A stretch of DNA of 64,000 nt, from assembly GCA_964597575.1 (NCBI GenBank), contig CAZQXB010000001.1:594511-658510 (forward strand), written 5' to 3'. Position numbers and translations under genes: made by a program. The stretch's first letter is position 1; every line of letters begins with the position of its first letter. Shown here piece after piece: positions 1,577 through 60,536 of the stretch. The notes below the pieces were generated by a model. It searched no databases. It had not been told where the DNA came from and saw only the letters and a list, made by a program, of their open reading frames with translations. Source of the DNA: an uncultured Gammaproteobacteria bacterium (GTDB lineage: Bacteria > Patescibacteriota > Patescibacteriia > Magasanikbacterales > UBA922).

Positions 1577-2407
1577 TTATGATGATTGGTTAAATCCCAT
1601 TTTTTCTAAAAGAATAAGTGCTGGGAAAACGAATACGGCCGTTATAATTCTCCCGATACGCTTTGGTTCGAGGAGAAGTCTCCAGAGCCACTCTATTCCG
1701 ATGCGGCGCATAAAAAGCGGTGCCCGTGGTGTTTTTCCAGACAGTGTATCGAGTGAGCCGCCGATACCAATAGCGATTTTAACACTGGGCAATTCTCCGA
1801 GGTGTTCGGTAATCCAAAGCTCCTGCTTCCCATGACTGAAAGCGACGACGAGCACATCTGGGGCTGCTGCAATAATGGCATCAACCATTCCATCCTCAGC
1901 TTCTTTGCTTTCTGGAGTGAGCGAGCCTATTCCACCCTCGACACCGTAATGAAGAGAAATTCCCGGGTGCGTACCACAGATGATAAGGTTCGGTGCATAG
2001 ACTTGAAGAGCCTTACCTGCTTTCTCGAGAACTTCCTTGCTACCGGTCCCCAAAAGAAAGACTTTTTTTTGCTGTCGAGCTGATTCCTCAATGAGTGTAA
2101 GAAGAAGATCAACTCCTGGGAAACGCTCTACATTCCCATTCGCAAAAAGCTCGATCCCTCGCCCATCACAGACATTAAGGGGTGCAGCATTTAAGGCGGC
2201 CTTAAAAACCGTATCCCGGCTCGCTGCAACAAGAATTTCAGGGTTTGGGGTGGTGATAATATGACCCCCAGGTTCGGTAAAGAACGACCGAAGTTTTTCT
2301 GATATCTCGGCTTTCGTATAGGTGTCGATTCGAACTCCTAGAACAAAGAGAGCCACAGACAGCAAAATAATGGGTACGTTATGATGGGTACACGCACAGC
2401 CTACCAT
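1577..2407 (-). CDS. WecB/TagA/CpsF-family glycosyltransferase with N-terminal TM segment
   Basis: 276 aa. It carries the C-terminal GIEWLWRLLLEPKR motif typical of TagA/WecG, and HIITTPNPE near the N-terminus. Confidence 0.8.
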   Translation of the reverse strand: MVGCACTHHNVPIILLSVALFVLGVRIDTYTKAEISEKLRSFFTEPGGHIITTPNPEILVAASRDTVFKAALNAAPLNVCDGRGIELFANGNVERFPGVDLLLTLIEESARQQKKVFLLGTGSKEVLEKAGKALQVYAPNLIICGTHPGISLHYGVEGGIGSLTPESKEAEDGMVDAIIAAAPDVLVVAFSHGKQELWITEHLGELPSVKIAIGIGGSLDTLSGKTPRAPLFMRRIGIEWLWRLLLEPKRIGRIITAVFVFPALILLEKMGFNQSS

Positions 2408-2410: not shown

Positions 2411-2438
2411 TTGACAGGCTTTTCCAGTGTGCTATAGT
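2411..2438 (+). promoter_or_regulatory. Sigma70-like promoter for clpB (TTGACA-16-TATAGT)
   Basis: TTGACA at 2411-2416 and TATAGT at 2433-2438, read directly from the sequence. Confidence 0.5.
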
Positions 2439-2439: not shown

Positions 2440-2466
2440 TTATCACTCTAATAACGAGAGTGATAA
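2440..2466 (+). promoter_or_regulatory. CIRCE-like inverted repeat (TTATCACTC-N9-GAGTGATAA), putative HrcA-type heat-shock operator
   Basis: Perfect 9-bp arms separated by 9 nt, located immediately downstream of the clpB -10. The CIRCE consensus is TTAGCACTC-N9-GAGTGCTAA, so there is one symmetric mismatch per arm. Confidence 0.5.
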
Positions 2467-2504: not shown

Positions 2505-5144
2505 ATGAATCCTCATAATTTCACCCAAAAGTCCCAGGAAGCGATTCAGAGAGCTTCAGATATTGCTCATGAACATGGCCAGCCCCAAGTGGAGCCTCCA
2601 CACCTTTTCGCCTCCCTTCTTCAAGAAGAGGAGGGCGTCGTGATTTCCGTACTTAAAAAAATGAATGCGAACATTCCTGAACTCCGAAATGCGGTGAGTA
2701 GCATGATTCAGGGGATGCCCCGAATCCCAGGCCCTATGCCGGGCGGTATCGGGCAGATTCTGATGGGTCAGGCCATGATGTATATTTTGGAGCGAGCCGG
2801 GGAAGAATCCAAAAAAATGGGCGATGAATACATTAGTGTTGAACATTTATTGTTGGCATTTTTAGGAAATAAAAACCCTATTAGCAGCGCTCTTGGAAAT
2901 CAGGGAGTTCATTACGACGACGTCTTAAAAACATTAGTGACGGTACGTGGAAATCAACGGGTTGATTCAGCAAACCCTGAAAGTAAATATCAGGCCCTTG
3001 AAAAATACGGTAAGAATTTTACCGAACTCGCTCGTCGAGAAAAGTTGGATCCTGTCATTGGTCGTGATGACGAAATTCGTCGAGTCATGCAGGTTCTCAC
3101 ACGTCGCACCAAAAATAACCCGGTACTTATTGGTGAGCCTGGAGTTGGGAAAACCGCCATTATTGAAGGCTTAGCACAGCGCATAGTAAAGGGCGATGTC
3201 CCTGAGAGTTTAAAAGAAAAAGAAGTGGTTGGGCTTGATATTGGTTCTCTCGTGGCCGGAACAAAATTTCGCGGTGAATTTGAGGAACGTTTTAAAGCAG
3301 TTTTAAAAGAAGTGATTGAATCCGATGGGCGTATTATTTTGTTTATTGATGAGCTCCACACCATTGTCGGAGCAGGTGCAAGTGAAGGTGCGGTCGATGC
3401 CAGTAACATGTTAAAGCCCGCACTCGCCCGTGGCGAACTTCATACGGTTGGGGCAACTACGCTTAAGGAATATCGTGAGCATATTGAAAAAGATGCAGCG
3501 TTTGAGCGTCGATTTCAACCGGTTCTCGTGACCGAGCCTACCCCTGAAGACGCGATTGCTATTTTGCGAGGAATCAAAGAAAAATATGAAGTCCATCATG
3601 GGGTCCGAATTACTGACTCTGCGATTGTGGCAGCGGTTGAATTATCAAGCCGCTATATTACCGACCGATTTTTACCCGACAAAGCGATTGATTTGATTGA
3701 CGAAGCTACCTCAGCCCTTCGTATGGAAATTGAATCAATGCCAGACGATTTAGATAAAATGAAACGAAAGATGATCAAAATCGAAATTGAAATGAGCGCC
3801 CTTAAAAAGGAAAAAGACGCTGATGCGAAAGAACGTTTGGGAAAACTGAAAGAAGAGATAGAAAATCTCCGCGAGAAAAGCAATGAGCTTGAAATGCACT
3901 GGAAAAATGAAAAAGAAATTATTGGAAAAATTCGTGAACATAAAAAAAGCATTGATAAGCTAAAGCAGGAAGCTGAAATTGAAGAACGAAACGGTAACTT
4001 ACAAAAAGTAGCCGAAATTCGCTACGGCAGTATTCCTATGATTGAAGAGGCTATTCGAGAAGATGAAAAGAAACTGACCGATATTCAAAAAGGACGTTCT
4101 ATTTTGAAAGAAGAAATTACTGAGGAAGATATTGCAGCCGTAGTTTCGCGCTGGACTAAAATTCCCGTTTCCAAAATGCTTCAGGATGAAATGCGCAAAC
4201 TCGTTACAATGGAAGATGAGCTTCGAAAGCGTGTCGTTGGTCAAGATGAGTCTATTCGCGCGGTAGCAAACGCGATTCGTCGTTCACGGGCTGGTATTTC
4301 TGAAAAGAAACGTCCAATCGGATCCTTTATCTTTCTTGGTCCAACCGGAGTTGGAAAAACGGAACTGGCTCGTGCACTCGCAGATTTTCTTTTTAATGAT
4401 GAGGAAGCTCTGGTTCGGGTGGATATGAGTGAGTTTATGGAAAAACATGCGGTCAGTCGCATGATCGGCTCCCCTCCTGGGTATGTGGGCTACGATGATG
4501 GAGGGCAGTTAACCGAAAAGATTCGTCGTCGTCCATTCTCGGTCGTGTTATTCGATGAAATCGAAAAAGCACATCCAGATATTTTCAATGTCATGCTTCA
4601 AATTCTCGATGATGGTCATGTAACTGATGCCAAAGGCCGTAAAGTCAATTTTAAGAATACCGTCATTATTATGACGAGTAACGTGGGGTCAGACATGATT
4701 ATGCGCTTAGGAAAGCGCGGAGAATTTGGCTTTGGTGATAATTCCGAAAAAACGACGAGTGAGAAAAAAGAAGACGCGATGAAAACGAAAGTCATGGAGG
4801 CTCTCCGTGATCAGTTTCGCCCAGAGTTTTTGAACCGCGTCGATGAAATTATCGTTTTTCATCCCCTCACAAAAGAGAATCTTCGTATCATTGTGGATCT
4901 TCAACTTCTTCAAATCGCAGAGCGACTTCGTGAAAGAAAGCTCACTCTTATTGTGACTGATGCAGCGAAGGATTGGCTCGGTGAAAAAGGATATGACGCA
5001 GAACTGGGAGCCCGCCCGATGAAACGGACGCTCCAAACTGAGGTTCTCGACCCTCTCGCGATACAAATCATGGCCGGAGAAGTGGTAGAGGGTGCGACTA
5101 TTACGGTTGATGTAAAAAATGATAAGATTACGTTCGTTGTTTAA
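2505..5144 (+). CDS. clpB: ATP-dependent chaperone ClpB (two AAA+ modules plus coiled-coil M domain)
   Basis: [16 protein letters not shown]-domain. D1 has Walker A GEPGVGKT and Walker [10 protein letters not shown] long coiled-coil middle domain follows. D2 has GPTGVGKTE and [11 protein letters not shown]. The track ORF starts at an upstream GTG (2427); the ATG at 2505 fits ClpB N-termini. Confidence 0.9.
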
Positions 5145-36638: not shown

Positions 36639-37970
36639 ATGGAAACATACCATATGACCCAAGAGGAAGCGCTCGACATTTTAAAGATGGGCCACAATGT
36701 TTTTCTCACGGGGCCGGCCGGAAGTGGCAAGACCTATGTTTTGAATTCTTACATTAAGTATCTAAAAAAACACAAGGTCCCGGTGGCAGTTACCGCTTCA
36801 ACCGGAATTGCCGCAGCCCATATGGATGGCACAACAATTCATTCCTGGACAGGCATTGGCCTTAAGGATTCCCTCACTCGTAAACAACTTACTGAACTAT
36901 CCAAAAACAAAGAACTGGTTGCGCGCATTGAAGGTGCTCGAGTTCTTATCATCGATGAAATCTCTATGCTTGATTCCAAGCGTTTTGAAGCCATTCAGAT
37001 GGTTTGCCAAAGCATACGAAAAAGCGCCCGGCCATTTGGTGGAATACAACTCGTTTTATGTGGAGATTTTTTTCAGCTTCCGCCAGTCGCTAAAAGAGAT
37101 GCTCCAGCCCCCCAGTTTTGCTTCACCTCCTATGCTTGGCGCGAAGCCAATATTGTCACCTGCTACCTCGAAAAACAATACCGCCAACACGACACACGCT
37201 TTCTCGACACGCTAAACGCTATCCGAAACAATGCGGTTACCCCAGAAATTCGAGCCACTTTGCTTGAGCGTCAAGGAAAACCCATCGAAGGAGTAGTAAA
37301 GCCAACGAAACTCTATACCCACAACCAGCGCGTAGACGAAGTGAATGCATTTGAGTTGAATCAAATTGAGGGGGAAACTTCAATTTACCGCATGAAATAC
37401 GATGGCGGATATACGGAAATTGATGAGCTTAAAAAATCGTGCCTTGCACCAGAAGAATTGGTAATCAAAAAAGGAGCGTTTGTCATGTTCACTAAAAATA
37501 ATTACGAAGCCGGGTACGTTAACGGCACTCTTGGAACGGTCGTCGCGATTGAAATCGATACCAACCATCCTGTTGTTCAAAAACTGGATGGCACAACGGT
37601 TGTAGCGAAACCCAGCGATTGGGTTATGGAAGACGATAGCGGAGAAGTGCTTGCCACCATTACTCAAATCCCCCTCAGGCTTGCCTGGGCCATGACCATT
37701 CATAAAAGCCAAGGGATGAGTTTGGATGCAGCCGAAATTGACCTCGGAAGTGCGTTTACCGAAGGAATGGGGTATGTAGCGCTGTCACGCGTTCGATCAC
37801 TTTCTGGAATTAAATTGCTTGGTTTAAATACCATGGCGCTTCGGGTAAACCCACTCGTTCATGAAGTAGATACCGAATTACGTATACTCTCGCTTGAGAG
37901 AGAAAAAGAATTACAAAAACTCCCCAAACGAGAAAAACAAGATCTCCACAAAAAATTTCTAAAAAAATAA
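36639..37970 (+). CDS. PIF1-family ATP-dependent DNA helicase
   Basis: GPAGSGKTYVL (motif I), VAVTASTGIAA, LIIDEISML (motif II) and GGIQLVLCGDFFQLPPV, the PIF1/RecD-like signature, plus a C-terminal SH3-like region. Confidence 0.75.
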   Translation: METYHMTQEEALDILKMGHNVFLTGPAGSGKTYVLNSYIKYLKKHKVPVAVTASTGIAAAHMDGTTIHSWTGIGLKDSLTRKQLTELSKNKELVARIEGARVLIIDEISMLDSKRFEAIQMVCQSIRKSARPFGGIQLVLCGDFFQLPPVAKRDAPAPQFCFTSYAWREANIVTCYLEKQYRQHDTRFLDTLNAIRNNAVTPEIRATLLERQGKPIEGVVKPTKLYTHNQRVDEVNAFELNQIEGETSIYRMKYDGGYTEIDELKKSCLAPEELVIKKGAFVMFTKNNYEAGYVNGTLGTVVAIEIDTNHPVVQKLDGTTVVAKPSDWVMEDDSGEVLATITQIPLRLAWAMTIHKSQGMSLDAAEIDLGSAFTEGMGYVALSRVRSLSGIKLLGLNTMALRVNPLVHEVDTELRILSLEREKELQKLPKREKQDLHKKFLKK

Positions 37971-37996
37971 ATCCGGCAAATCGCCGGATTTATTTT
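37969..37996. terminator. Bidirectional rho-independent terminator (aaatccggc-aaatc-gccggattt)
   Basis: A perfect 9-bp stem flanked by A- and T-tracts, between the convergent helicase and META genes. Confidence 0.7.
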
Positions 37997-38010
37997 AACG
38001 AAATAAGAAT

Positions 38011-38610
38011 CTATTGACCAAGAACACGGGTAAATGTCATCGTTCCTGCACCACCCTTGAGGTTTAATGTAAGCGTATTTCCAGATGCAGATACCGTATA
38101 CCCAATCACATCAGTTAAATACCCAGAATAAATAGTTTCTTGAGAATCTTTGCAATACATAAGGGTTGATGTTAACGGACCGATGCTCATGTATCCAGCA
38201 TTTGCGGTGTATTTTCCAGAAACGCTATTGCAGTCAGTGTGACTTACCATGCGTTCTCGCGTTTCAAAACTGAGCACAAAACGTTCAGGATTTTTTGGAG
38301 TAAACGTTCCTGTTTTAAGGGTTGTTTTCTGCCACTTCCAGGTTGTTCCGAATAAAGCTCCATTCATCGGTTCCGGAGTTGGCGCAGGAACTGGTGCTTT
38401 CGGAGTAGGCGCTGGCGGCTTAACTGCTCGAGCAGGTGGTTTTACCGCCGTTCCCGGAGCTACCACAGTAGTTGTTGGAGCTGCGCTTGGCTGAGGATCC
38501 ACTCCCTGTTTCTTTTCCTTATCTGGTTTCATCATGAATGCCACCCCGAGCGAAATAATAACGACCCCTGCCACGACAACAAGAAAAATAAATGGCGCCT
38601 TCTTTGTCAT
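38011..38610 (-). CDS. Membrane-anchored META-domain (DUF306/HslJ-like) protein
   Basis: TM anchor (FIFLVVVAGVVIISLGVAF), a PA-rich linker and a C-terminal META-like domain (CNSVSGKYTANAGYMSIGPLTSTLMYC). A GTG at 38682 overlaps the upstream stop, so the start is uncertain. Confidence 0.65.
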   Translation of the reverse strand: MTKKAPFIFLVVVAGVVIISLGVAFMMKPDKEKKQGVDPQPSAAPTTTVVAPGTAVKPPARAVKPPAPTPKAPVPAPTPEPMNGALFGTTWKWQKTTLKTGTFTPKNPERFVLSFETRERMVSHTDCNSVSGKYTANAGYMSIGPLTSTLMYCKDSQETIYSGYLTDVIGYTVSASGNTLTLNLKGGAGTMTFTRVLGQ

Positions 38611-38678
38611 ACTTATGAAGAATAAGAAATATTGTATAGTATAGCACACTCTATACAAAATTATCTCTTTTTTTCTCC

Positions 38679-39956
38679 TCACGATAATCCCTGACGTATC
38701 TCTTCTTCCACTAAACGCTTTGGGCGAGCATATGCTAAACGACTTAAACGCCGAAGTGTTGTAATTTGTTCCGCGTCGGCAGTGCCCCGTGCAGGTAAAC
38801 TTACTCCAGAAAACGCTTCACTCATTTTGCCATCAATCATGAGCTTCAAATAAAAATGAAATTTTGGAAGGTTAAGGAAATCTTCTTTCTTTATCGGATA
38901 GAATTCTTTTGCGAGCATCTCTGCATCTTCCACACCGACCCCAAAAGCCATAAATGTGCCTACGTTTCCTAAAATAGAATCTTGCATTCGTTCGGGAAGC
39001 TGTGCAAAGTACTGATTGGTCAAGTGAACCCCAAGCCCGTACTTGCGTGATTCCGAAAGTAAGCTTGAAAAGGTATCAGAAATAAGATTCTGAAACTCGT
39101 CGACATACAAATAAAAAGGGTATCGTTTTTCGACCGGCAACCCCGCTCTTTTTAAAATCGCAGCCTGTAATTTTGAAATGAAAATAAGCCCGAGCATCTG
39201 TGCATTAATGTCCCCAATTTTTCCTTTCGAAAGATCAATCAAAAGAATCTTTTCTCGATCAAGGATGTGGTCAAACTGAAAAGCTGATTTTCTCTGCCCG
39301 ATGATATTTCTCATGAGGCCGTTATTCATGAAGTGGCCAAATTTTGAGGTAAAATAATTAAGCATTTCGGATTTATGAAAATCTGAGGTACTTGCCATCT
39401 GCTTTGTCCAAAAATCAATCACCAGTGGGTCTTTTATGAACTTCCGCTTCGCAAGCTCAAACCGTTTATCAATAAAAAGTTTCGGGATCTCAATAAGGCT
39501 TCCCCCTTCTGGCCCCGCCATCACGGTCAGGGCCGCGCTCCGAAGCCAGTGCTCAAATTGTGGACCAATGATCCCTGTTTTATCCGGATCAAATAATTTA
39601 TAAAAAATTTCAATAACCTGAGCCACGAGAAAATCTTTTTCTGCTTCGTCACGCCACTCAAGCAAATTTAACCCAAAGGAGCATTCCGCATCAGAAGGAT
39701 CAAACAAAATAACATCCTCTAGACGGTTTTTTGGAATACGTTCTAAAAGCCAAGCGATCGACTCACCGTGAGGGTCGATGAAACAGACGCCATGCTGGTT
39801 TTCAATATCCTGCAAGCAAAGATTTTGAAACATGGTGGACTTCCCTGCCCCGGTTTTTCCAAGCATATACATATGCCGCAAACGATCGGCATCTTTATAC
39901 ACGATAGAGGTTTTTTTATTCCGAAACTCATTCGTTCCAAGGAGAACAGTAGGCAT
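38679..39956 (-). CDS. Soluble P-loop NTPase of the TraD/TraG/VirD4 coupling-protein (HerA/FtsK-like) superfamily
   Basis: 425 aa. HMYMLGKTGAGKST (Walker A) is followed by FIDPHGE. ILLIDLSKGKIG, LYVDEFQNL (Walker B-like) and ESRKYGLGVHLTNQYFAQL are also present, with no N-terminal TM segments. Confidence 0.6.
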   Translation of the reverse strand: MPTVLLGTNEFRNKKTSIVYKDADRLRHMYMLGKTGAGKSTMFQNLCLQDIENQHGVCFIDPHGESIAWLLERIPKNRLEDVILFDPSDAECSFGLNLLEWRDEAEKDFLVAQVIEIFYKLFDPDKTGIIGPQFEHWLRSAALTVMAGPEGGSLIEIPKLFIDKRFELAKRKFIKDPLVIDFWTKQMASTSDFHKSEMLNYFTSKFGHFMNNGLMRNIIGQRKSAFQFDHILDREKILLIDLSKGKIGDINAQMLGLIFISKLQAAILKRAGLPVEKRYPFYLYVDEFQNLISDTFSSLLSESRKYGLGVHLTNQYFAQLPERMQDSILGNVGTFMAFGVGVEDAEMLAKEFYPIKKEDFLNLPKFHFYLKLMIDGKMSEAFSGVSLPARGTADAEQITTLRRLSRLAYARPKRLVEEEIRQGLS

Positions 39957-39961: not shown

Positions 39962-40246
39962 TTATTCTTCAGTTCCGAAAAACTTTTGCTCAAAATAATA
40001 GGGCGGGAGAACAAACGAATAGTGAGATAGTGTCTCTTGTTTTGCCTCCTCAACCGCAAATAGTTTTTTTAAGGCTTTTCTTTCTTGCTCTAACTTTTCT
40101 TCAATAGTATGAAAAAACTTTGGACTTACCACTCTTTCAATCTTTTTAAGCTCTGCACAACGCGCATGATAAAGAGCTGTAATATCTTCTTCAGAAAGCA
40201 TCGGGGCTTCCGCGCTGCCATGTATAGGGGAATAGAAGTGGGTCAT
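39962..40246 (-). CDS. Hypothetical 94-aa protein
   Basis: It overlaps the upstream AAA+ gene stop by 4 nt (ATGA) and has no family match. Confidence 0.4.
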   Translation of the reverse strand: MTHFYSPIHGSAEAPMLSEEDITALYHARCAELKKIERVVSPKFFHTIEEKLEQERKALKKLFAVEEAKQETLSHYSFVLPPYYFEQKFFGTEE

Positions 40247-41910
40247 ACTTCATCGGCTAAAAGTTTTTCACTAATCAAATTTTCACACGTTGTTTCAATA
40301 AAACGTTTTACCGGTCGGGCACCAAAACGTGGATCAGACAACGTGCGAATCTTCTTTTTTAGAATTTCAGGGTCAATTTTAAAGGAAATTTTGTGTTTTG
40401 CAACCCGTGCCTCTACTTTTTTAATTTCTAACTTCGCCACCTCAAGCAGGTGTTCTTCGGTAAGAGGTTGAAAAACAAGCACAGCATCAAACCGATTTAA
40501 GAATTCTAAACGAAAAAATTGCGCGAGTGCAGGGACCAATTTTTCCTGAAAGAAAGCCTCGCTGTGAATGTCATCTCCTTTTTTAAAGCCATCGATAATA
40601 TCACCCACAGCTAAGTTTGAAGTAGCCATAATAACCGTTTGCGTGAAGTCGATGGTCTCACCCTGACCTGAGGTAAGTCTTCCATCATCTAAAATCTGCA
40701 AAAAGACATCAAAAATTTTGGGATGGGCTTTTTCAATTTCATCGAGAAGCACCAAACTGTACGGCTCCGTTTTTACGGCATTGGTGAGCCCTCCCCCTGC
40801 TTCAAAGCCGACATATCCTGCAGGCGCACCAATAAGACGCGCCACGGTGTGTGCCTCGCCAAATTCGGACATATCAATACGGACAAAACTTTTCTTTCCC
40901 CCGAACAACTCACTTGCCAACACTTTCGCTGTTTCTGTTTTTCCAACCCCAGAAGGACCGAGCACAAGAAAAGACCCGAGGGGGCGGTTTGGATTCTTTA
41001 GCCCAAGCTTCGCTCGCTTCACGGTTGAGGCAATTTGATTCAATGCAACTTTCTGCCCAATAATATGAGAATTAAGCTTATGTTCCAGTTGGCGAAGACG
41101 TTCTTTTTGAGATACTTGGAGTTCAGTTAAAGGAACGCCTACTTTATCAGAAATAACCTGATAGACATCCTCCTCTTTTACCTCCTTCCCTCCTTTTGTT
41201 TTGACGAGCGTTACAGACTCATCGAGAATACTTACCCCTGCCCCTGGCGAGTGACCGAGAACGGCAAACCGTTCAACGAGGCTCAAAATAAGCTCCAAAA
41301 TAGTTTGAGGGATTTGAATATGAGGGAGACCGAAACGCTTTTCCGCCGCCCGAAGAATTTGTATCTGCTCAGCTGCAGGTTGGGGTTTCAATGTCAGAAC
41401 TTCAAAAAAATGAAGAAATTGGGCCTGTTCGTTTTGAAGCCATGCAAATTCTTTCGATTCAAAAGAAAGAATCAACCGTACTTTTCCCAAATCAGCAATT
41501 GGTTTCAAAAGCTGAATCATATGCTGAAGAATGATCGGTTTGTTGTAGACGAGTGCTCCAAAATTATCAATAATAAAAACACAGCTCGGTAGTGAATCAA
41601 GTGCTTCTTTATATTTTTGAAGTGGTACCTGTACGGTACTATTTAAAGGTTCAAACGCCGAAGCTTCACATTCCACCACTCGAAAGGGTTTTGTTTCCTT
41701 TTTTTGAGCATATCGCTCCGCAAAACCACGAAGGAGAGAAGTTTTTCCAATGCCATTTGGCCCGACCACAATACAATTGTTGTGTACTGTACGGTGGACG
41801 ACCCGCTCCATGCGCTCACACTCTTCAGCACGACCAATACACGGCAAAAGACGCCCTTTGAATGCTTCGAGTGTTAAATCGTAATACCCAATTTTTGTAA
41901 ACTCAGGCAT
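40243..41910 (-). CDS. Clp/Hsp100-family AAA+ ATPase paralog lacking the N-domain, with a degenerate D1 Walker B
   Basis: 555 aa. D1 has Walker A VVGPNGIGKTS, but its Walker B is FIIDNFG, where Asn replaces the catalytic Glu. D2 is canonical: LGPSGVGKTE, LVLLDEIEKAH and sensor region SNLAVGD, with a ClpB-like D2 C-terminus. Confidence 0.8.
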   Translation of the reverse strand: MPEFTKIGYYDLTLEAFKGRLLPCIGRAEECERMERVVHRTVHNNCIVVGPNGIGKTSLLRGFAERYAQKKETKPFRVVECEASAFEPLNSTVQVPLQKYKEALDSLPSCVFIIDNFGALVYNKPIILQHMIQLLKPIADLGKVRLILSFESKEFAWLQNEQAQFLHFFEVLTLKPQPAAEQIQILRAAEKRFGLPHIQIPQTILELILSLVERFAVLGHSPGAGVSILDESVTLVKTKGGKEVKEEDVYQVISDKVGVPLTELQVSQKERLRQLEHKLNSHIIGQKVALNQIASTVKRAKLGLKNPNRPLGSFLVLGPSGVGKTETAKVLASELFGGKKSFVRIDMSEFGEAHTVARLIGAPAGYVGFEAGGGLTNAVKTEPYSLVLLDEIEKAHPKIFDVFLQILDDGRLTSGQGETIDFTQTVIMATSNLAVGDIIDGFKKGDDIHSEAFFQEKLVPALAQFFRLEFLNRFDAVLVFQPLTEEHLLEVAKLEIKKVEARVAKHKISFKIDPEILKKKIRTLSDPRFGARPVKRFIETTCENLISEKLLADEV

Positions 41911-41917: not shown

Positions 41918-44434
41918 CTAAGCAGCTATGGCGATTGGTGTCTGCGGTACAGAGTGTTGAAGAATACTCCTCACATTTCCTTCAATCACCTCTTCCAATT
42001 CACTTGGATTATACCCACGAACGCGACCGAGAAGAGACTCTACTTGACCCCGAGTTCTCGCCGTAATTTCTTTTTTAAATTCTTCGCCAATTTTTTCTTT
42101 CCCTTGTGGCACCATCTCTGGTTTCAAAGTAGCGCCGTCGGTTTGTTTTGCAACATCGCGTACATATGTTCTTTCTTCAAAGCCTTTTTGGTCGGGCGTT
42201 TCTTTTCTCTCTAGCCCAATTTTTTCAGTAGTTTCAAACTTCAACGACACCCCTTCACTTGTGGTTTTTTCAGGAACCGTATGATTCGTGTCTAATTGGT
42301 CTATGTTTTTTTCGGCAACCACAACCTCTTTTACAACAGTTTCTTGTCTTAAAGATACAGAAGGTGAAAACAGCACCGCAGGTTCCGAGGTGGCGGTTCT
42401 TTCCTTATCCGTATTATTCACGATTTCTACTATGCCCACATCTTCCAAAGAAGGCGTTTCAGAAAATTCGACCATCTTTGTAACAGGAATAACTTGAGCT
42501 TTTTCCACAATATCCTTTTCAGTTGCTTCAACTACTTGAGCTACAAACACCTCTTCCATCACGAACACTCCTTCAGAATTATTTTCATAATCCTGAACTT
42601 GGCCAGACTCTTTCTCCACTATTGCTATACCAGATACATCGTCAACAATGGGCAGGTAAGTTTCTTTTCCCACTCCTAGCACCCCAGAAAGAGTAGTGGG
42701 AAGGGAAACAGGAGCCACACTCTCAATATCGGTATCAGTAATTGCCTGCTCCACGAGCCCAATACCAGTTTCCTGCCATACCGCTTGCGCAGTTTCAGCA
42801 AAAGTTTCTTCCTCCGCTACTAAATTTTCTTTTCTCTCAGATACTGTCGTTTCTGTAACAGAAAAAGGGGTAGATTCGATAGAAGCTGAAGAGTTATCTA
42901 CCTCAACCATCGGGAAAACTTCCGTGTCAAAAATAAGTGTTATCGCTTCTGGGGTAGGAGTTGCAGTATTACTTTCTCTCTTAAAATCCGTGACGCGCTC
43001 ATCCCTCTCTACAACTTCCGTATCTCCCTTTTCATGGAAAGAAAAAGTCTCTTCAAAAGAAGTGTCGGCAACCACAATAGACTCTGGGGCAAAATTTTCT
43101 CTTTCGCCCACTGTCATTTTTTTAATATGAAGAGAATTTTCACCTTCTTCAGAACTTGATGCACTTTTTTCTATGTCATCTCTCAGAATAGGGGCCACAT
43201 CTACATAGTGAGAAAAAGAAGACATCTCTGACTCTCCTACCAGACCACGCGAAACATCATATGTTTCTAACTCAATACCAGAAGAGACTTTTATCTCTTT
43301 TGTTTGGAAAGAGGGATCTTCCGGAGTTTGAACTTCTAAAAAAACAGGAACACCTTCTGAAATCTCAAAAGATTGACCTTCCTTTTCAAGGGTAATGCCG
43401 AGCAGCTCCCCCTCTGTTTCATAAACATGCTGAATAACTTCACTGCGTGGGGCATGAACTTGCCGTGCAACATCTCCTAATTCTAGAATCTGAGGAATGA
43501 GTTCATGATTCTCCTCTACAGAAGCCGCCTCGTCTACACCTTCTTGTTCTAATGAAGGGGTGGTAAAAATTTCTTTAGGTAACATTATCGGCGACACCTC
43601 ACCTAAAAAAGGTTGCTCAAATTTTTCAGTTTCAAAAACATGAGATTCTTCAGGCGCAGCAAACATCCGATCAAACCAGGAGTTCTGTTCCTCCGTAGTC
43701 TCTAGATTACCATTCTCGGGTAAGGACAGTTCCACACCCGTGGCGATTACGCCAGATACATCATGGTGCTCTAAAGATTCCTGCCAGATAGGGGTTAAGT
43801 TAAGTTCAATGCCCTGCGTACTTAAATCAACCACCGTTCCATCACCCTCTTCATCAAGCTCGCCATCATTCGCTACCCTCTCCGCAGACACAGGGACATC
43901 ACGAGTAAATCCATACATTGCAATCTTACCATCAGCAGTCACCCACATTTTTGATATATGCCACACCTCTTTATCACCTTTTTGTTCGACATGCTTTCCA
44001 ATATGCTCTGATCTCGGACCCTCCTGAAGGGCCCCCCGCATTCGTTCGTGGTACGCAATCTCCTCGGCTGTACCGGTCTCATGCACACCCTTGGTAACAT
44101 CGTGCTGTGTTCTTGGTACGAATAAATGCCCGGTAGTTGCATCAAACTCCATTTGTCCCACATTGTCAGAAAATTCTACACTCCACTCAGACATCTCCCC
44201 ACCAAACATCGTTCGAATTTCCTCTAAAGCAGATTCCTGAGTGGGAGGAGTATACTCCTCAGAGACGCTAGCTGGCTCTCGTTCATTCTGCAAAGCCAGC
44301 TCTCCAGAATCAGGGGATGCTGGAGGAAGCTCAACTGAATTTGGCGCGCGAAAAGGACTACCCTCACTAGAATTGGGAAATTGATCTTCTTCAGGCTCTT
44401 TTTCAATTCTCTGTTGTCCGTGGAGTTCTCGCAT
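41918..44434 (-). CDS. 838-aa hyper-acidic, low-complexity (E/D/S/T/V-rich) protein with a short globular N-terminal region
   Basis: Acidic residues dominate throughout. There is no TM or signal peptide. Residues ~90-180 (FDATTGHLFVPRTQHD...WHISKMWVTADGKIAMYGF) look globular. It is first in the operon. Confidence 0.6.
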   Translation of the reverse strand: MRELHGQQRIEKEPEEDQFPNSSEGSPFRAPNSVELPPASPDSGELALQNEREPASVSEEYTPPTQESALEEIRTMFGGEMSEWSVEFSDNVGQMEFDATTGHLFVPRTQHDVTKGVHETGTAEEIAYHERMRGALQEGPRSEHIGKHVEQKGDKEVWHISKMWVTADGKIAMYGFTRDVPVSAERVANDGELDEEGDGTVVDLSTQGIELNLTPIWQESLEHHDVSGVIATGVELSLPENGNLETTEEQNSWFDRMFAAPEESHVFETEKFEQPFLGEVSPIMLPKEIFTTPSLEQEGVDEAASVEENHELIPQILELGDVARQVHAPRSEVIQHVYETEGELLGITLEKEGQSFEISEGVPVFLEVQTPEDPSFQTKEIKVSSGIELETYDVSRGLVGESEMSSFSHYVDVAPILRDDIEKSASSSEEGENSLHIKKMTVGERENFAPESIVVADTSFEETFSFHEKGDTEVVERDERVTDFKRESNTATPTPEAITLIFDTEVFPMVEVDNSSASIESTPFSVTETTVSERKENLVAEEETFAETAQAVWQETGIGLVEQAITDTDIESVAPVSLPTTLSGVLGVGKETYLPIVDDVSGIAIVEKESGQVQDYENNSEGVFVMEEVFVAQVVEATEKDIVEKAQVIPVTKMVEFSETPSLEDVGIVEIVNNTDKERTATSEPAVLFSPSVSLRQETVVKEVVVAEKNIDQLDTNHTVPEKTTSEGVSLKFETTEKIGLERKETPDQKGFEERTYVRDVAKQTDGATLKPEMVPQGKEKIGEEFKKEITARTRGQVESLLGRVRGYNPSELEEVIEGNVRSILQHSVPQTPIAIAA

Positions 44435-44705
44435 AATTAAAAACGCACCTCTCCCGAGGTGGTCAAAAAATATACTGAGATAGATATTTCCTGCTCGGGA
44501 TGTCTACACTATTTGGCGATCTGACTCCTTTAGGCTGCCCTAAAGATTACAGTTGCGGCACAGTACCGGAATTTCACCGGACTTCCCCAAATAGCTGCTC
44601 AATTGTGTGTCCATTGTATCTCGCGCATCGAGCGGTGTCAAACGTCCAAATATCACAAAAAAATATTCACTACTGCGTACACTAAAATGGTTATCCACAC
44701 CGTAT

Positions 44706-53469: not shown

Positions 53470-56382
53470 CTAGAATTTCTTCGTGATGATGTCCACCAGT
53501 CTATTCAAGAATTTTGGAAAGTCTTTAAGTACAAATCGACCTTTATAATCTCTCAAAATCAATTCCTGCAAGGTTTGTTTTATATCCTTCACAAACACAT
53601 CCCGCTTTGAGGATTCCTGCCAACCACTATCGAGATCGTCTTCAATACGAATGCGCAACTCTTTTATAAATTCCTTTATCACATCCTCTTTTCCAGCCTC
53701 AACAAACTCTTGAGAAATGACATAGAGCGCGTATTCCTTTAGATCAAGCCCTAGATCCTTCGCCTCGTCTCCTTTCGTCTTGATATCGCTCATCAATTCC
53801 TCATATCGGCGTATTCGTTCGGCAAGGTCAATTTGATTCTGTTCAAACTCACGACGAATAGCGGTTAGCCGTTCGCTAAACTTCTGATACGCCGGATTTT
53901 CATCAAGATTGATAGAGATTTCCTGCTTGAGCATCTTCTCAAGGTTGAGAGCCTTTTCTTCTTCGTCCATTCCCTTGAGGCGTTCAAGCGTGTACAAATC
54001 ATTCACGCGAAGTTCTCTGAAATTCTTGGTGATTCCTTCGTAGTCGATGATATTGCTCTTTTGAATAAGCTCTTTAACTTTCTCCCCATATTCTTCAAGC
54101 AAATAGCGATCATCTTCGCTTCGGAATTCTTTCAAAAATGCCAGGTAAAAACTCGTCACCCATTCAAACGGACGAATATACTGCTTCAGGAATGGATCAG
54201 GCGAAAGAAACTCAAACAAACTCTTGAGCTTCATATACTTCTCAACAAAGTATTTCTGCTTGTCTTGATTATCGATGAAAATCTTGAGACATCGACGAAG
54301 ATTATCCATTGATGGGTCTTCAATATTCACGCCGGTAAATACCTTCATCACATCATTTAAGACATCAGTAAATCGCGCCTTGACTCGCTCAATATCAATC
54401 ATCGCCGAATCAATGACGTCTTCGTCAAAATCTAGAGCATCATAAAGATTCCTCGTAATGCCATAGTAGTCAATAATCTTTCCGGCTTCTTTGTTTTTAT
54501 ATACCCGATTCGTACGCGCAATAGCCTGCAAGAGGTTGTGGTCGCGAAGCGGCTTGTCGAGGTACATCACTTGCTCAATCGGCGCGTCAAAACCAGTGAG
54601 CAACATATCGCACACCAAAAGGAATTTAAGTGATGACTTTGAATCTTTGAATTTCTCAATGATTTGCTCTCGCTCACGTTTGCTCGTGTTGTACACCTTC
54701 AAATCATCCGCATCACTGTTTGGGTCGCCAGGCGAATACACTACCGCCGACCATTCAGCCGGAACCAATTTATCAAGTAGCTTTTTATACGTTGCCACGG
54801 CTTCACGGTCATATGCCACTATTTGCCCCTTAAAGCCGTTTGGCTCCACATAGAGCTTGTAATGCTCCACAATATCCCTTGCCACGGCTTCCATACGCTT
54901 AGGAAGCTTCACGAGCGCTGCTTTCTTACCATACTTCTTCACCAACTCGGTCTTTTGTTTGTCTGACAAATCTCCAGCAATCTCTTCAAACTGTTGATCA
55001 AGCTTTTCTTCATCAATAGAAAACTTTGAAAGACGCGCTTCGTAGGTAACAGGGATAGTCGCCCCGTCATCAATCGCTTGCTGGATAGAGTAGTAGTCCA
55101 AGTATCGCTTCCCATCACCTTCATAATTTCGGAATGTATTGGTATGCGTCTTATCCACCGGCGTTCCAGTGAATCCGAAGAAAAATGCTTTTTTGAACGC
55201 ATTACGCATGTTAATACCCGACACACCCTCGTCCCCTCGATGCGCCTCGTCAGAAAGCACAATCACATTCTCATCAAGATTTTCCACCTTGTCTCCAAGC
55301 TCAGCAAACTTCTGAATGGTCGTAATGAATATGCCTTTCTCCGGTGATTGAATTTTTTCTTCCAAATCTTTGCGCGAAGTGACACGAACAATATTTTTTC
55401 CACCAGCATTGGTAAATGTTTCAAATATTTGATCGTCCAAATCCACGCGGTCAACCAAAATAAATACCTTAGGGTTTTCCAGTTGTTTATTAAACCGTAG
55501 TTTCCATGCCGTGAAATACATCGTGAGCGTCTTGCCTGACCCTTGTGTGTGCCAAATAAGCCCTTGTCGTTTCTCTTTACTTACAACACGCTCAACAATT
55601 TTATTCGTCGCACGCATTTGCTGATAACGAGCAATTTTCTTCACCAATTTCTCCTTCTCTTTTTCAAATAAAATGAAATTTTGCACGATATCCAAAAAAT
55701 TCTCTTTAGAAAGAAGTGAGAAAAGCGACATCTCCAACTCTCCACCAAGCTCTTTTTCCATGTCTTCGTCGCGCCACTGGAGGAAGTATTGCTTTGGCGC
55801 GCCGGTTGCACCGTACACCGTTTTGAGCCCGTCGCTCGCGATATTGAAGCAGTTGGGAATAAACAACTTGCGAGCTACTTTTTCGTATCGCTTTATCTGG
55901 TCAATACCATTTTCAAAACTCACACCCTCCGAAGCCGTCGGGCTTTTGGCCTCAATATCTACAAGCGGAAGCCCGTTTACGAAAATCATAATATCCTGAC
56001 GTATGTTTTCCGTATCCCCCTCAAAATAGAATTGATTAGTAACAACAAATTGATTGTTTTCTGGATTATCGAAATCTACGATTTTATAATCGCGAAATAA
56101 TCCCGTTGCAGAATCTTTGAGGTTTATACCGTTACGAATTGCGTCAAGAAAAATTTGATTTGAGTCAATTTTATTTACTTCACGCAAAATACTTTTGGCG
56201 ACAGTATCATCAACGCTGTTTATTCTTTTAATAGCATCAAGTAATTGTGGTTTGATAGTATACTCACTCTCCAAATCACGGAGTTTGGCAAATTCCTCTG
56301 GTTTTATGTATTCAAAACCAAGCTTATCTTTAATAAACCTGATGATGTAATTTTCTACTGTAACTTGTTCATTGAATTTCAT
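53470..56382 (-). CDS. hsdR: Type I restriction enzyme R subunit
   Basis: ATG at 56382 (MKFNEQV), an N-terminal nuclease region, helicase motifs (QGSGKTLT, VLSDEAHR) and a C-terminal helical domain. The track ORF starts at an upstream TTG. Confidence 0.9.
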   Translation of the reverse strand: MKFNEQVTVENYIIRFIKDKLGFEYIKPEEFAKLRDLESEYTIKPQLLDAIKRINSVDDTVAKSILREVNKIDSNQIFLDAIRNGINLKDSATGLFRDYKIVDFDNPENNQFVVTNQFYFEGDTENIRQDIMIFVNGLPLVDIEAKSPTASEGVSFENGIDQIKRYEKVARKLFIPNCFNIASDGLKTVYGATGAPKQYFLQWRDEDMEKELGGELEMSLFSLLSKENFLDIVQNFILFEKEKEKLVKKIARYQQMRATNKIVERVVSKEKRQGLIWHTQGSGKTLTMYFTAWKLRFNKQLENPKVFILVDRVDLDDQIFETFTNAGGKNIVRVTSRKDLEEKIQSPEKGIFITTIQKFAELGDKVENLDENVIVLSDEAHRGDEGVSGINMRNAFKKAFFFGFTGTPVDKTHTNTFRNYEGDGKRYLDYYSIQQAIDDGATIPVTYEARLSKFSIDEEKLDQQFEEIAGDLSDKQKTELVKKYGKKAALVKLPKRMEAVARDIVEHYKLYVEPNGFKGQIVAYDREAVATYKKLLDKLVPAEWSAVVYSPGDPNSDADDLKVYNTSKREREQIIEKFKDSKSSLKFLLVCDMLLTGFDAPIEQVMYLDKPLRDHNLLQAIARTNRVYKNKEAGKIIDYYGITRNLYDALDFDEDVIDSAMIDIERVKARFTDVLNDVMKVFTGVNIEDPSMDNLRRCLKIFIDNQDKQKYFVEKYMKLKSLFEFLSPDPFLKQYIRPFEWVTSFYLAFLKEFRSEDDRYLLEEYGEKVKELIQKSNIIDYEGITKNFRELRVNDLYTLERLKGMDEEEKALNLEKMLKQEISINLDENPAYQKFSERLTAIRREFEQNQIDLAERIRRYEELMSDIKTKGDEAKDLGLDLKEYALYVISQEFVEAGKEDVIKEFIKELRIRIEDDLDSGWQESSKRDVFVKDIKQTLQELILRDYKGRFVLKDFPKFLNRLVDIITKKF

Positions 56383-56389
56383 AGTATTA

Positions 56390-57571
56390 CTATGGTTTTT
56401 TGTCCAAGTTCGCCACAAACCCTTCTTTTGATAAAATTTCTACAATCCCTCGCAAAAGATAGTTGTTTGCAAAAGCCACTGTATAAATCCTACCGTTTTC
56501 TTTGAGCGGCATGACCATCTTTTTTTCTTTCAACTTCGAGATAATACGAGACCTTTGCACTGATGAATCCTCATTCAACACCTTCTCCAAATCGCCGGCT
56601 TTTACTTGCATATCTTTTTGAGAGATTATAAATGTCAGAATCTTATATTCTCGATCAGTAATCCATTTATTCTCAAGAGAAAAACTAAAAACTGGTAACA
56701 AAATACTATTGATCAAATAATTTTGATCAAGCAATTTATCTATTTTTTCAATTTCAGCCTTTAGACCCGAGAATACATATTCGCACCATGCGATTGTTTT
56801 TTCTTGTTCTCCAGTATCCGCACCGGCAAGCATATCGTAATATTTTTGCCTATCCATACAAAACATTGCTGTTGGGTTCAAAATCGAACCCGTCTTCACC
56901 TGAAACCCCTGCTTAATGAGCATGGCATAGGTTAGTAACCGCACCAAACGGCCATTTCCATTATCAAACGGGTGAATCCAAGCAAAACGATGGTGTGCCA
57001 GTGCCATAACTAAGAGGTCATTCGCTTTTTCAGTCTTTTGATTTACAAAAGAAAGTAGTTCGTCAAAATAATTTGGTACTTGCAGGTATTCAGGTAAGAC
57101 AACCGAAGACCCTGTAATTTCAGGATTTACATTTCGAAGTTCACCGGGCCGCGCTGAACCTTCTCCTTCTGGTGGTGGAGTAAGATCTTTCGTTATGATT
57201 TTATGCACTTCTGATAAAATAGCCCTACTGATCTCGGTATCTTCTTTAATAGTCTTATGCAAAAATTGCAAAGCATTTTCAATATTATCAATTTCTCTAG
57301 AGCTTTCGTCTGTACGGGTTTTTCCTTGAATTTTTTTCTCCACGAATTCCGCCAGTGTTGTACGATTACCTTCTATTCGTGCCGAACCCAAACTTTCTAG
57401 TATATGAAAAATATCTTTCAATTGAAAAAAGATGTACGGTGGCACACCCACGCTAAAAATCCGTTTAGTGCGTAGTTCTTCAAGCTCAAAAATCAAAGTG
57501 GCAAGACGCGAGTTCCACTCTGGTTTTATAAGCTTAAGCGGTATTTCTTTGAATTCTCGTGTATTTTTCAT
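56390..57571 (-). CDS. Fic/DOC-family protein (AMPylase-like) with C-terminal winged-helix
   Basis: Fic motif HPFDNGNGRLVRLL. Confidence 0.85.
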   Translation of the reverse strand: MKNTREFKEIPLKLIKPEWNSRLATLIFELEELRTKRIFSVGVPPYIFFQLKDIFHILESLGSARIEGNRTTLAEFVEKKIQGKTRTDESSREIDNIENALQFLHKTIKEDTEISRAILSEVHKIITKDLTPPPEGEGSARPGELRNVNPEITGSSVVLPEYLQVPNYFDELLSFVNQKTEKANDLLVMALAHHRFAWIHPFDNGNGRLVRLLTYAMLIKQGFQVKTGSILNPTAMFCMDRQKYYDMLAGADTGEQEKTIAWCEYVFSGLKAEIEKIDKLLDQNYLINSILLPVFSFSLENKWITDREYKILTFIISQKDMQVKAGDLEKVLNEDSSVQRSRIISKLKEKKMVMPLKENGRIYTVAFANNYLLRGIVEILSKEGFVANLDKKP

Positions 57572-57708
57572 AAATTGATGATAGCATTATTTACAACATA
57601 CTACAATACTATTTAACATATACACATACAAAAGCCTTATTTTAAGCTATTTTATTACATATACTCTGTAGTATTATTTAACATTTCTCTAATAATGATT
57701 TAACATAT

Positions 57709-59013
57709 TCATGGGATCATTTTCCCAATCGCAGCAAGATGATCAGTTCTCACTTGTCCGCTTAATAAGTCTTGCATCAGGCCTTTTTTGAGGAGAGTAA
57801 ATTTTTCTTTTAATTTTTTATTGACCAAAATCTTTTCATCGACTGCGGAAAGAATTTCCGCAATTTCTTTTTGTTCATCTTCTGTTGGAATCGGGATATA
57901 TACCTGCTCCAAGCTTCCTATAGGCAACTGGGGCTGAGCTGAGCCGGAGACGATTTCTTTATACTTTCGCTTCAACATATCACTCTTCATTAAATGATAT
58001 AGGAAGACTGCCTCGACGCCGTCAAAAGCTCTTAATAAAACCATGCCTGAATTAATTCTTATATTTTCGAAGGTAACATTTTTATCGTAATAAGCAACGT
58101 TTCCTACGGTACCTCTCGTGGTCAACACAACATCTTCCCTTTGAAGCCTTCCCTTTCTTAACGCTTGATCCTTTTCTCTTGATATGAACTGCAATTCGTT
58201 AAATAAAAACTTATCGTCTTTAATGTTCTTATTATTCAGGAACAGACAATAACCCCCACTTGTGAGATAGGGGTCAATAAAATCATGGCCGTGTGGGTAA
58301 TTAACACCGCGATCACCATCAATTATTTCTATAGGTGCATCTTTTAACTTTAAAACCTCCCACTCTTGAGGAATCTGCCCGATTTTTGTTTCTTTAAATT
58401 TTGTATGCCCAATCCCGCGAGTAAAGAGCTGTTGCATCAGTCCGCGTTTGAGTTTTTCTGTCGTCTCAATCACTTCCTGCGTTTTCGCGATATCCTCATC
58501 CACCACACCTAAAATCTCTGCAATCTTTTGCTGTTCTTTGATTGGAGGAATAAGAACTTCAATTTGAGTTTTTATTACAGATGGTCGCACCTCCTTTATG
58601 GTGCTACCAGAGGAAAGTTTGTGCAGAAGATTTTTCTTACTTAGAAGTAAATAATACAAATAAGTATTAAGAAGGTCATCATTTGGTATAATCCCCGCAA
58701 TTCCTTGCTTTGTAGTAACAGGAACATCCGCAATACCAACTTCGCCAATAGTAGCCCCGAACGACAGGATTACGCTTCCAGTCGGCCACAGTTTTGCAGA
58801 TGATTTTTGGAGACCTTCATCCGTAAGTGTGTCCTTTGTTTGTTTAATATGTGGTTTTATATCATTAACCACAACCCAAGGAATCTTGCCGCCAAAATAT
58901 TCATCTTTTGAACGCAAAGGTGTCCCTCCATCACCAATATCAGCGAGAAAATTGCCCAATTCTCCAAATTTCCATCCATTCGGAATATTCTGTTGCGTTT
59001 TAGTGATTGGCAT
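57709..59013 (-). CDS. hsdS: Type I R-M specificity subunit with two target-recognition domains
   Basis: Two TRD-like halves separated and followed by conserved coiled-coil spacers (LKRGLMQQLF / LKKGLMQDLL). The ATG is at 59013. Confidence 0.85.
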   Translation of the reverse strand: MPITKTQQNIPNGWKFGELGNFLADIGDGGTPLRSKDEYFGGKIPWVVVNDIKPHIKQTKDTLTDEGLQKSSAKLWPTGSVILSFGATIGEVGIADVPVTTKQGIAGIIPNDDLLNTYLYYLLLSKKNLLHKLSSGSTIKEVRPSVIKTQIEVLIPPIKEQQKIAEILGVVDEDIAKTQEVIETTEKLKRGLMQQLFTRGIGHTKFKETKIGQIPQEWEVLKLKDAPIEIIDGDRGVNYPHGHDFIDPYLTSGGYCLFLNNKNIKDDKFLFNELQFISREKDQALRKGRLQREDVVLTTRGTVGNVAYYDKNVTFENIRINSGMVLLRAFDGVEAVFLYHLMKSDMLKRKYKEIVSGSAQPQLPIGSLEQVYIPIPTEDEQKEIAEILSAVDEKILVNKKLKEKFTLLKKGLMQDLLSGQVRTDHLAAIGKMIP

Positions 59014-59677
59014 ATTCTTCAATTAACTTTCTCGCGTATGCACGACCAAAATATTTTATGACAACAAACCCGAAACATAGGTACAGACCGTAGCCGATCA
59101 AACAGATTACTCCAACGGTGCGCAGCAGACTCAATGGCTCGGAAAGAAAAATAAGAAGTAGTGACCCGAAAATTCCGCTCAAAGAAGCTCCCCAGAGGTT
59201 TCTGACGAATCCATACTCGATATTATGTTGAAGTACCAAGTAGCCATCTTTTACCTTCCCGATTATCACGCGGATGGAATCCTTGATTCGCTTACGCGCA
59301 TCTTTTTCGTTCTTGTGTTCGTCATCTGCGGTTGGCAGCTGAATTGATAAATCTCTTTTGACCGCCTGACGGATCTGGTCTTTAAACTCGCTCGAATATT
59401 CATCATCAGAGTACATAAGGAAGCTTGTTGTTGGAAAATAAAGTTGCTTCTTAAACAAAAAGTCCTCAAAAATTTTACTCGGTATGCGAACAAAATACTG
59501 GTTGAAGGTATAAAGTAGAATGGTTGACAGCCCAACATTTCCGACAGCAGAAGCGATTAAGGAATCAATATTCCAGATGTTGTTGAGGTAAAAATATTGA
59601 AAAACAAACCACGGAATAAGTCCGATGATAGTCGGAAAGATTCTCGCTATGAGGTTGTAAGTGGAGAATATTTTCAT
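59000..59677 (-). CDS. Hypothetical 4-TM membrane protein embedded in the R-M operon
   Basis: 225 aa with two N-terminal and two C-terminal TM helices around a charged cytoplasmic middle. The gap to the upstream gene is 2 nt, and it overlaps hsdS by 14 nt. Confidence 0.5.
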   Translation of the reverse strand: MKIFSTYNLIARIFPTIIGLIPWFVFQYFYLNNIWNIDSLIASAVGNVGLSTILLYTFNQYFVRIPSKIFEDFLFKKQLYFPTTSFLMYSDDEYSSEFKDQIRQAVKRDLSIQLPTADDEHKNEKDARKRIKDSIRVIIGKVKDGYLVLQHNIEYGFVRNLWGASLSGIFGSLLLIFLSEPLSLLRTVGVICLIGYGLYLCFGFVVIKYFGRAYARKLIEEYANH

Positions 59678-59679
59678 AT

Positions 59680-60534
59680 CTATACAGCGAGTGTGTCGTA
59701 TGAGCGAGTACCGTCCGCTCCAAATTCAATAAGAATATGCCCGTCACTACGGGTAGTGAGCACTTTTCTCGTACTTCCTCCAAAATTTACCCCGTCTCCT
59801 AATACATGACCTGCATATTTCTGTGCCATACCTCCTTGTGTGTCATACATTATGTCTTTATCGGAAATCACCACGACCTCTGGAAAGCAATTCTCGAAAA
59901 TTGATTCGTGATATCCATTATCCCTTCCGTGATGCGGGGCAATAAGTACATCTGTTGAAAGCATGTGCGTTTTCACCGCATCTTTTTGAAGAATCTTTTC
60001 CCAAGCCACTCGCTCTAAATCACCAGCGACACAGAGCTTTGATCCTCCAAACTCCACAAAGAGCATTTGACTAAGGTGATTCGTGTTAAGATCTCCATCC
60101 AAATCACTTTGTTCTAGGTGATAAGAATGGGTTGTGTACACAGGAGTGAAATCAACAGCGTTGCCCGTGTAAGTGTCTTTCAGATGGCACACATGTTGGA
60201 GCGCAAAAGTGATTTCATCCTTGTGATTCTTCAGTTCCTGACTAGTGATATTTTTTGGAAGTCGAGTAGTCCATATATCAACTTTCTTTCTTAGGTCTGG
60301 CAACCATGAAAAATGGTCATGGTCGTAGTTTGTGATAGTTAGGTTACCCAAACGAGGTTTTCCGTTTGCGTTCTTTGGAAGTATATTTTTTGAGACTATA
60401 AATTCCACCGGAGAGAATCCTTCGCTTTCACCACCGCAATCTATAAGTCGTGCATGGCTAGGTTGTTCATTAGGGAAAACCAATATAGATTGTGCCGCAC
60501 CAACATCAAACACCGCAATTTGTAATTTACTCAT
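59680..60534 (-). CDS. Metallo-beta-lactamase-fold hydrolase embedded in the R-M operon
   Basis: LIDCGG, NYDHDHF (HxHxDH-like), APHHG and ISDKD. Confidence 0.65.
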   Translation of the reverse strand: MSKLQIAVFDVGAAQSILVFPNEQPSHARLIDCGGESEGFSPVEFIVSKNILPKNANGKPRLGNLTITNYDHDHFSWLPDLRKKVDIWTTRLPKNITSQELKNHKDEITFALQHVCHLKDTYTGNAVDFTPVYTTHSYHLEQSDLDGDLNTNHLSQMLFVEFGGSKLCVAGDLERVAWEKILQKDAVKTHMLSTDVLIAPHHGRDNGYHESIFENCFPEVVVISDKDIMYDTQGGMAQKYAGHVLGDGVNFGGSTRKVLTTRSDGHILIEFGADGTRSYDTLAV

Positions 60535-60536
60535 AT

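Follow-up and report, generated by a model that had tools for sequence, protein, structure and literature searches.

A CIRCE-type operator with a symmetric one-letter variation probably governs clpB in an ultra-small CPR bacterium

Introduction

The repressor HrcA and its operator CIRCE form the textbook heat-shock repressor system. In the Bacillus subtilis model, HrcA is active only with GroEL, which unfolded proteins titrate away. In B. subtilis-type Firmicutes, clpB belongs to the regulon of CtsR, whose operator is a direct heptad repeat. CIRCE has been described at clpB in Mollicutes: Mycoplasma gallisepticum shows CIRCE together with heat induction at clpB, dnaK, lon as well as dnaJ_2, two mismatches being that study's working limit (PMC4245973), and Spiroplasma melliferum carries CIRCE ahead of clpB (PMC5138195). 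In Campylobacter, HrcA footprints over the start site and represses by steric hindrance (PMC7464140).

Here we describe a dyad at the clpB promoter in a 64-kb stretch of DNA (the window), along with its counterparts in related genomes. The site resembles B. subtilis CIRCE in its 9-N9-9 layout, in agreeing with the consensus at 16 of 18 positions and in its placement, which is at the -10 element of a housekeeping-sigma promoter or immediately past it; in the relatives, as in B. subtilis, the motif stands before groESL and before the operon that contains hrcA, grpE, dnaK and dnaJ, with autoregulation of hrcA. It differs in having T and A for G and C at positions 4 and 24 and in its target, clpB, and the HrcA of the relatives has about 227 residues against about 340 in B. 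subtilis. The Mollicutes (M. gallisepticum, S. melliferum and M. genitalium) are alike in their reduced genomes, in CIRCE on clpB, dnaK and lon, and in the tolerance of up to two mismatches (PMC4245973, PMC5138195); their sites, however, are scored against the canonical G/C form and their HrcA is full-length, whereas a symmetric letter recurs in the clade considered here. The first-pass annotation of this DNA had set CIRCE on clpB against the classical targets groESL and dnaK; the M. gallisepticum and S. melliferum precedents show that such a placement is not unusual. Campylobacter and Helicobacter also pair a shortened HrcA with a CIRCE-like repeat that diverges from the consensus and spans the transcription start (PMC7464140), but epsilonproteobacterial HrcA works with HspR. 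Literature searches on HrcA/CIRCE in the candidate phyla radiation (CPR), Patescibacteria or Saccharibacteria, and on the string TTATCACTC, returned nothing relevant.

Results

The dyad and the clpB promoter

The elements of the locus are as follows.

1577..2407, minus strand: divergent gene for a WecG/TagA-family glycosyltransferase (TIGR00696, 96 bits)
2411..2416, plus strand: -35 hexamer TTGACA of the clpB promoter (promoter scan)
2430..2438, plus strand: extended -10 element TGcTATAGT of the clpB promoter (TATAGT hexamer at 2433-2438, with TG ahead)
2440..2448, plus strand: left arm of the CIRCE-type operator, TTATCACTC, with T, not G, at position 4
2449..2457, plus strand: operator spacer, TAATAACGA, 9 nt, unconserved among relatives
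2458..2466, plus strand: right arm of the CIRCE-type operator, GAGTGATAA, with A, not C, at position 24
2505..5144, plus strand: clpB, the putative regulated gene, 879 aa (TIGR03346, 1286 bits versus a cut-off of 1232)

Read directly from the letters, the dyad TTATCACTC-N9-GAGTGATAA consists of two 9-bp arms that match perfectly in inverted orientation across a 9-nt spacer, as the first-pass annotation had described it; a fold prediction also pairs the terminal bases of the spacer, giving 10 bp and a loop of 7. It agrees with the CIRCE consensus, TTAGCACTC-N9-GAGTGCTAA, at 16 of 18 arm positions and with the exact spacing. The two mismatches fall at the symmetric positions 4 (G to T) and 24 (C to A), the single substitution per arm that had been noted earlier. 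Even with three mismatches allowed, the dyad was the sole CIRCE-like match in the window. Shuffled sequences gave on average 0.01 matches to the variant pattern and 0.00 to the consensus, and none of 100 shuffles contained a CIRCE match at three or fewer mismatches.

The clpB promoter is of the sigma-70 type and near consensus, with the promoter scan returning TTGACA-16-TGcTATAGT (11 of 12 positions). The dyad starts one base past TATAGT, at or after the -10 as first proposed, and ends 38 nt ahead of clpB, a core-promoter position of the kind found for CIRCE. ATG 2505 as the start of clpB agrees with an 879-aa homologue, P0121, to which the window ClpB is 93% identical over its full length; identity to Magasanikbacteria ClpB proteins is 78-79%. 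We consider it very probable, judging from sequence comparison, that the dyad is a CIRCE-type HrcA operator (G4T with the symmetric C24A) functional in clpB repression, since identical dyads elsewhere mostly precede chaperone genes or hrcA.

The wecG-like gene and clpB divide one 97-bp intergenic region, and the wecG-like promoter must therefore overlap the clpB promoter and operator. This divergent layout recurs in L017, L021, L089, L116 and L207-L209. On the minus strand at 2439-2466, the dyad arms read as a sigma-70-like promoter facing the wecG-like gene, TTATCA-16-GATAAT (9 of 12 positions), the only promoter-like minus-strand site in the intergenic region. A canonical G/C operator would read GCTAAT in that hexamer, and the last T of GATAAT is unconserved in L207, the 93% relative. 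Separately, a 7-bp hairpin, GATTCAT-N11-ATGAATC (2487-2511), would pair the clpB start codon; considered as an RNA thermometer, it was set aside as probably a chance feature, being absent from L207.

Content of the window

Family scans of nearly all open reading frames of at least 150 aa, together with tblastn searches using the HrcA, GroES, GroEL, DnaK and Hsp20 proteins of relatives as queries, detected no hrcA, groES, groEL, dnaK or hsp20 in the 64-kb window, nor was there a second copy of the dyad within it. We infer that the source genome encodes hrcA outside the window.

Several other features were recorded. An Rfam scan of the window returned only an AdoCbl riboswitch, distant from the dyad: it is of type AdoCbl-II (44506-44605, minus strand; 42 bits versus a gathering score of 36.5) and lies directly upstream of an 838-aa open reading frame (41918-44434, minus strand) with no Pfam match even at an E value of 0.01. 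That frame is followed by a gene for a 555-aa AAA+ protein with ClpB-D2-type domains (40243-41910, minus strand), and the two genes are a predicted B12-controlled pair. A type I restriction-modification locus occupies 53470-62222 (minus strand), in which hsdM (60537-62222) encodes an N-terminal MerR-type helix-turn-helix (residues 4-51). Its hsdR and hsdS genes flank a Fic/DOC gene (56390-57571), and hsdS is separated from hsdM by two open reading frames that have no family match (59000-60534). A further cluster at 36639-39956, which may be a mobile-element remnant, comprises a PIF1-type helicase gene (36639-37970, plus strand), a gene for a META-domain protein (38011-38682, minus strand) and, beside these, one for a TraG/VirD4-like coupling protein (38679-39956, minus strand).

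Identical dyads in other genomes

We scanned one genome per species, covering 185,579 species and 596 Gb, for the exact dyad TTATCACTC-N9-GAGTGATAA. At least 119 stretches carried it, against about 9 expected by chance (596 Gb / 4^18). Neighbours were called as the longest open reading frame whose start lay no more than 400 nt from the dyad in either direction, and their products were clustered. Among the matches listed, a heat-shock gene or hrcA starts within 400 nt of the dyad in 110 of 119, with the following neighbours.

groES or groES-groEL beside the dyad: 48 loci among the matches listed
clpB beside the dyad: 27 loci among the matches listed
gene for an HrcA of about 227 aa beside the dyad: 23 loci among the matches listed
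hsp20 beside the dyad: 8 loci among the matches listed
dnaK beside the dyad: 4 loci among the matches listed

In at least ten genomes, among them JAZDMW (hrcA, L054, and clpB, L088), JABIGQ (groESL and clpB), CAZHYG (clpB and hrcA) and JBAZIZ (clpB and hrcA), the exact dyad stands at two distinct heat-shock operons. The clpB of JAZDMW is one of those most similar to the window gene among the matches listed, of which the best reaches 73.6% nucleotide identity. The 119 listed loci contain only four extra CIRCE-like sites, too small a number to serve as an operator-independent sample. The HrcA-type regulon postulated by the first-pass annotation is thus represented in relatives, where the identical dyad stands at groESL, hrcA, dnaK, hsp20 and clpB; its proposal to look for the dyad at chaperone promoters and for an hrcA gene found both in the nearest relatives.

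The matches listed come mostly from CPR bacteria, namely Magasanikbacteria, Peribacteria/Peregrinibacteria, Saccharibacteria and Paceibacteria-type groups, with some low-GC bins. In Rhodobacteraceae, Salinibacter/Salinivenus and Peptoniphilaceae, the matches listed are groES sites only, in the T/A form. Many TPA bins titled 'uncultured Gammaproteobacteria' (including L001, L002, L008, L018, L026, L027, L029, L046, L089, L090, L096, L098, L109, L116 and L119) have a GC content of 0.37-0.44, a Magasanikbacteria-like clpB, the wecG gene order and a short hrcA; on these CPR-like bins the label looks wrong.

Operators at clpB of the closest relatives

The nearest ClpB proteins are labelled Candidatus Magasanikbacteria and show 93, 79 and 78% identity. 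Gene order is common to the window and its relatives: gltX, an rlmB-like gene, wecG, an oppositely oriented clpB, a ferredoxin gene and suf genes. On these grounds the window is assigned to a Magasanikbacteria-like member of the CPR. Three relatives were picked on ClpB similarity alone, with the operator disregarded, and all three have a CIRCE element in the same slot after the -10, in the forms T/A (93%), T/C (79%) and G/C (78%).

In all clpB promoters of Magasanikbacteria type, whether from the 27 listed loci or from the three relatives, the pattern is TTGACA-N16/17-(TG)nTATAnT and the dyad follows after 1-3 nt; TTGACA-N16/17-TATAnT precedes the dyad in L005, L008, L018, L029, L060, L088, L090, L109, L116, L207, L208 and L209. 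In Peribacteria and others, the -35 lies just ahead of the dyad or within its spacer. Because its sequence is kept while its placement relative to the promoter elements shifts, the dyad behaves as a DNA operator.

Short HrcA proteins of the relatives

The protein of about 227 aa encoded beside the dyad has the N-terminal winged helix of HrcA (…SGATVRNE…PHTSAGRIPT…) and a C-terminal GPxRMDY motif. Against PF01628 it scores 47-63 bits (cut-off 22.2), matching profile positions 85-215 only. TIGR00331 gives 150-166 bits in two stretches and stays under its equivalog threshold (197.2), since the short protein has no counterpart to the central part of the model. Against NF003033, a 264-position model with a cut-off of 248, the short HrcA of CPR bacteria scores 56-74 bits over the N-terminal 95 residues only, and the shortenings in epsilonproteobacteria and CPR are probably independent.

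The fold comprises a winged helix-turn-helix and a GAF-like domain, as in Thermotoga maritima HrcA (1STZ). Unlike the short protein, 1STZ has about 100 extra residues, which we take to be its inserted dimerising domain, and a canonical SSAT helix start. Since these residues are missing, dimer formation and GroEL control in short HrcA may differ from those in model organisms. A PDB search found no structure of an HrcA-DNA complex.

In Magasanikbacteria, hrcA heads an hrcA-grpE-hsp20-dnaK-dnaJ operon, and the dyad ends 1-3 nt before the hrcA ATG. Besides the 23 dyad-adjacent loci among the matches listed, hrcA is also present in L200-L206. Short HrcA proteins of CPR bacteria span about 221-263 aa (23 loci within L004-L110, L120-L161 and L200-L206; proteins P0001-P0120), and their NCBI records are mostly titled 'hypothetical protein'.

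Position 4 and the recognition helix

For a sample independent of the operator, metagenome contigs were scanned with an HrcA alignment and the peptide pattern PHTS[AS]GR[IV]P. Most of the short hrcA genes (CPR; 225-260 aa) found in this way have a canonical G/C operator upstream; T/A occurs only at L120, and L141, L161 and L179 are hybrids. The T/A variant is therefore not a general feature of CPR bacteria.

In none of the 24 HrcA proteins encoded beside an exact T/A operator does the recognition helix begin with S-[PS]-A-T-x-R-N, which is constant elsewhere. In 22 of them S-[PS]-A-T itself is lost from the start of the third helix (SGAT, xEAT, SAPT, SGPT, SSPT, GAPM or SAAT), while the other two, L044 and L100, keep SPAT and have RIE in place of RNE. 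The 120 closest homologues of the Magasanikbacteria HrcA all carry SGAT, SAPT, SAAT, SDAT or xEAT. A model of the protein places the third helix at residues 43-55, which makes the changed residue the first of the recognition helix. In every one of the 48 canonical cases this residue is P or S, whereas the clade has G, E, A or D there.

As a prospective test, seven further hrcA loci with a changed motif were chosen while their operators were unknown. They proved to be T/A at three loci, T/C at two (L200 and L203), A/C at one (L204) and G/C at one (L202). In the samples chosen independently of the operator, non-G operators accompany 9 of 12 changed-motif loci against 0 of 48 canonical-motif loci (Fisher p = 1.5e-8, without correction for shared ancestry).

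Our first reading of this co-variation was a clean G-to-T switch in specificity, in which the lineage's HrcA would have changed in step with its operators and would by now demand T in place of G at position 4. Such a switch would account for the symmetry of the change in both arms, for the T/A form at two operons in ten or more genomes, and for the altered helix start both beside T/A operators and among the closest homologues, as well as for the association with non-G operators. We demoted it on the hybrids and canonical sites met in the prospective hrcA loci and the three clpB loci, and now regard it as unlikely: the same changed motif goes with T/C, A/C and G/C operators, the clpB operators of the nearest relatives are likewise of three kinds, and T/A also stands at groES in Rhodobacteraceae, Salinibacter/Salinivenus and Peptoniphilaceae.

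Because hybrid operators exist, one HrcA dimer must accept both T and G half-sites. The operators indicate a relaxation, and not a switch: the clade's HrcA would no longer discriminate at position 4. T at this position is probably a tolerated or preferred variant for the clade's short HrcA and no separate specificity. More tentatively, the change in the first residue of the recognition helix could be what cost the reduced HrcA of Magasanikbacteria, and of some other CPR bacteria, its discrimination at position 4, a proposal that we hold as possible but would not favour over its negation. The altered HrcA specificity suggested by the first-pass annotation accordingly survives in part, as a relaxed position 4, and not as a switch, for relatives have T/A, T/C, A/C and G/C in the same slot.

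Seven hybrids (L077, L141, L179, L200, L203, L204 and L208) all carry the non-G letter in the gene-upstream arm. This asymmetry hints that promoter context also shapes the letter at position 4.

Proposed control of clpB

In the proposed mechanism, the dyad, placed just past the -10 of the strong sigma-70-type clpB promoter, would cover the expected transcription start, at about A2445. Without heat stress, a dimer of HrcA, whose gene would lie elsewhere in the genome, would occupy the dyad and block RNA polymerase, keeping clpB low. Upon protein unfolding, HrcA would become inactive, and clpB would be derepressed together with groESL and the hrcA-grpE-hsp20-dnaK-dnaJ operon. HrcA binding, repression and heat induction at the clpB dyad are what we infer from the arrangement of these elements.

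We also weighed whether the main role of the repeat might be that of an RNA hairpin in the clpB leader, acting on mRNA stability or translation, and not that of protein-binding DNA. If transcribed in full, the 27-mer would indeed fold well (-10.7 kcal/mol, z = -6.6). The expected start at about 2445, however, falls in the left arm and leaves only about 4 bp of the stem transcribed, and the predicted fold from 2445 does not use the dyad. Relatives place the dyad variously, past the -10, about the -35 or so that the -35 falls in its spacer, which fits a DNA operator, and at hrcA 1-3 nt separate the end of the dyad from the ATG. A hairpin role is accordingly very improbable.

That the dyad arose as a palindrome by chance, or serves some unrelated regulator, has a negligible probability, even though the window holds no gene for the regulator and about 0.2 perfect 9-N9-9 repeats of whatever sequence are expected per 64 kb, for the shuffles yielded no CIRCE match, 110 of the 119 identical dyads (among the matches listed) precede chaperone genes or hrcA, and arms, spacing and symmetry fit neither HspR/HAIR (consensus CTTGAGT-N7-ACTCAAG, PMC7464140) nor a CtsR operator; given dyads at several operons of single genomes, this reading can be treated as excluded.

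Discussion

With the dyad read as an HrcA operator, the one-letter deviation at the window site is best described as ordinary lineage variation and no new system. What marks the clade, namely a short HrcA together with a relaxed position 4 and a changed helix start, amounts to a modest variant and is a pattern from outside the window.

The finding would mean that the ultra-small bacteria of the CPR, whose transcription factors are very few and for which experimental genetics is lacking, retain the classical HrcA/CIRCE heat-shock circuit, and that in Magasanikbacteria clpB is a regular member of it. For genome analysis, scans for CIRCE in CPR bacteria should permit T, and sometimes A, at position 4, and annotation should recognise short HrcA despite an NCBIfam score below the equivalog level. 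The co-variation between helix start and position 4 also offers a lead on how HrcA reads its operator. If discrimination at position 4 has indeed been lost in the way suggested here, this natural co-variation would pinpoint the HrcA residue that reads position 4, and HrcA would be able to act on its palindrome even when the presumed dimerising domain is missing.
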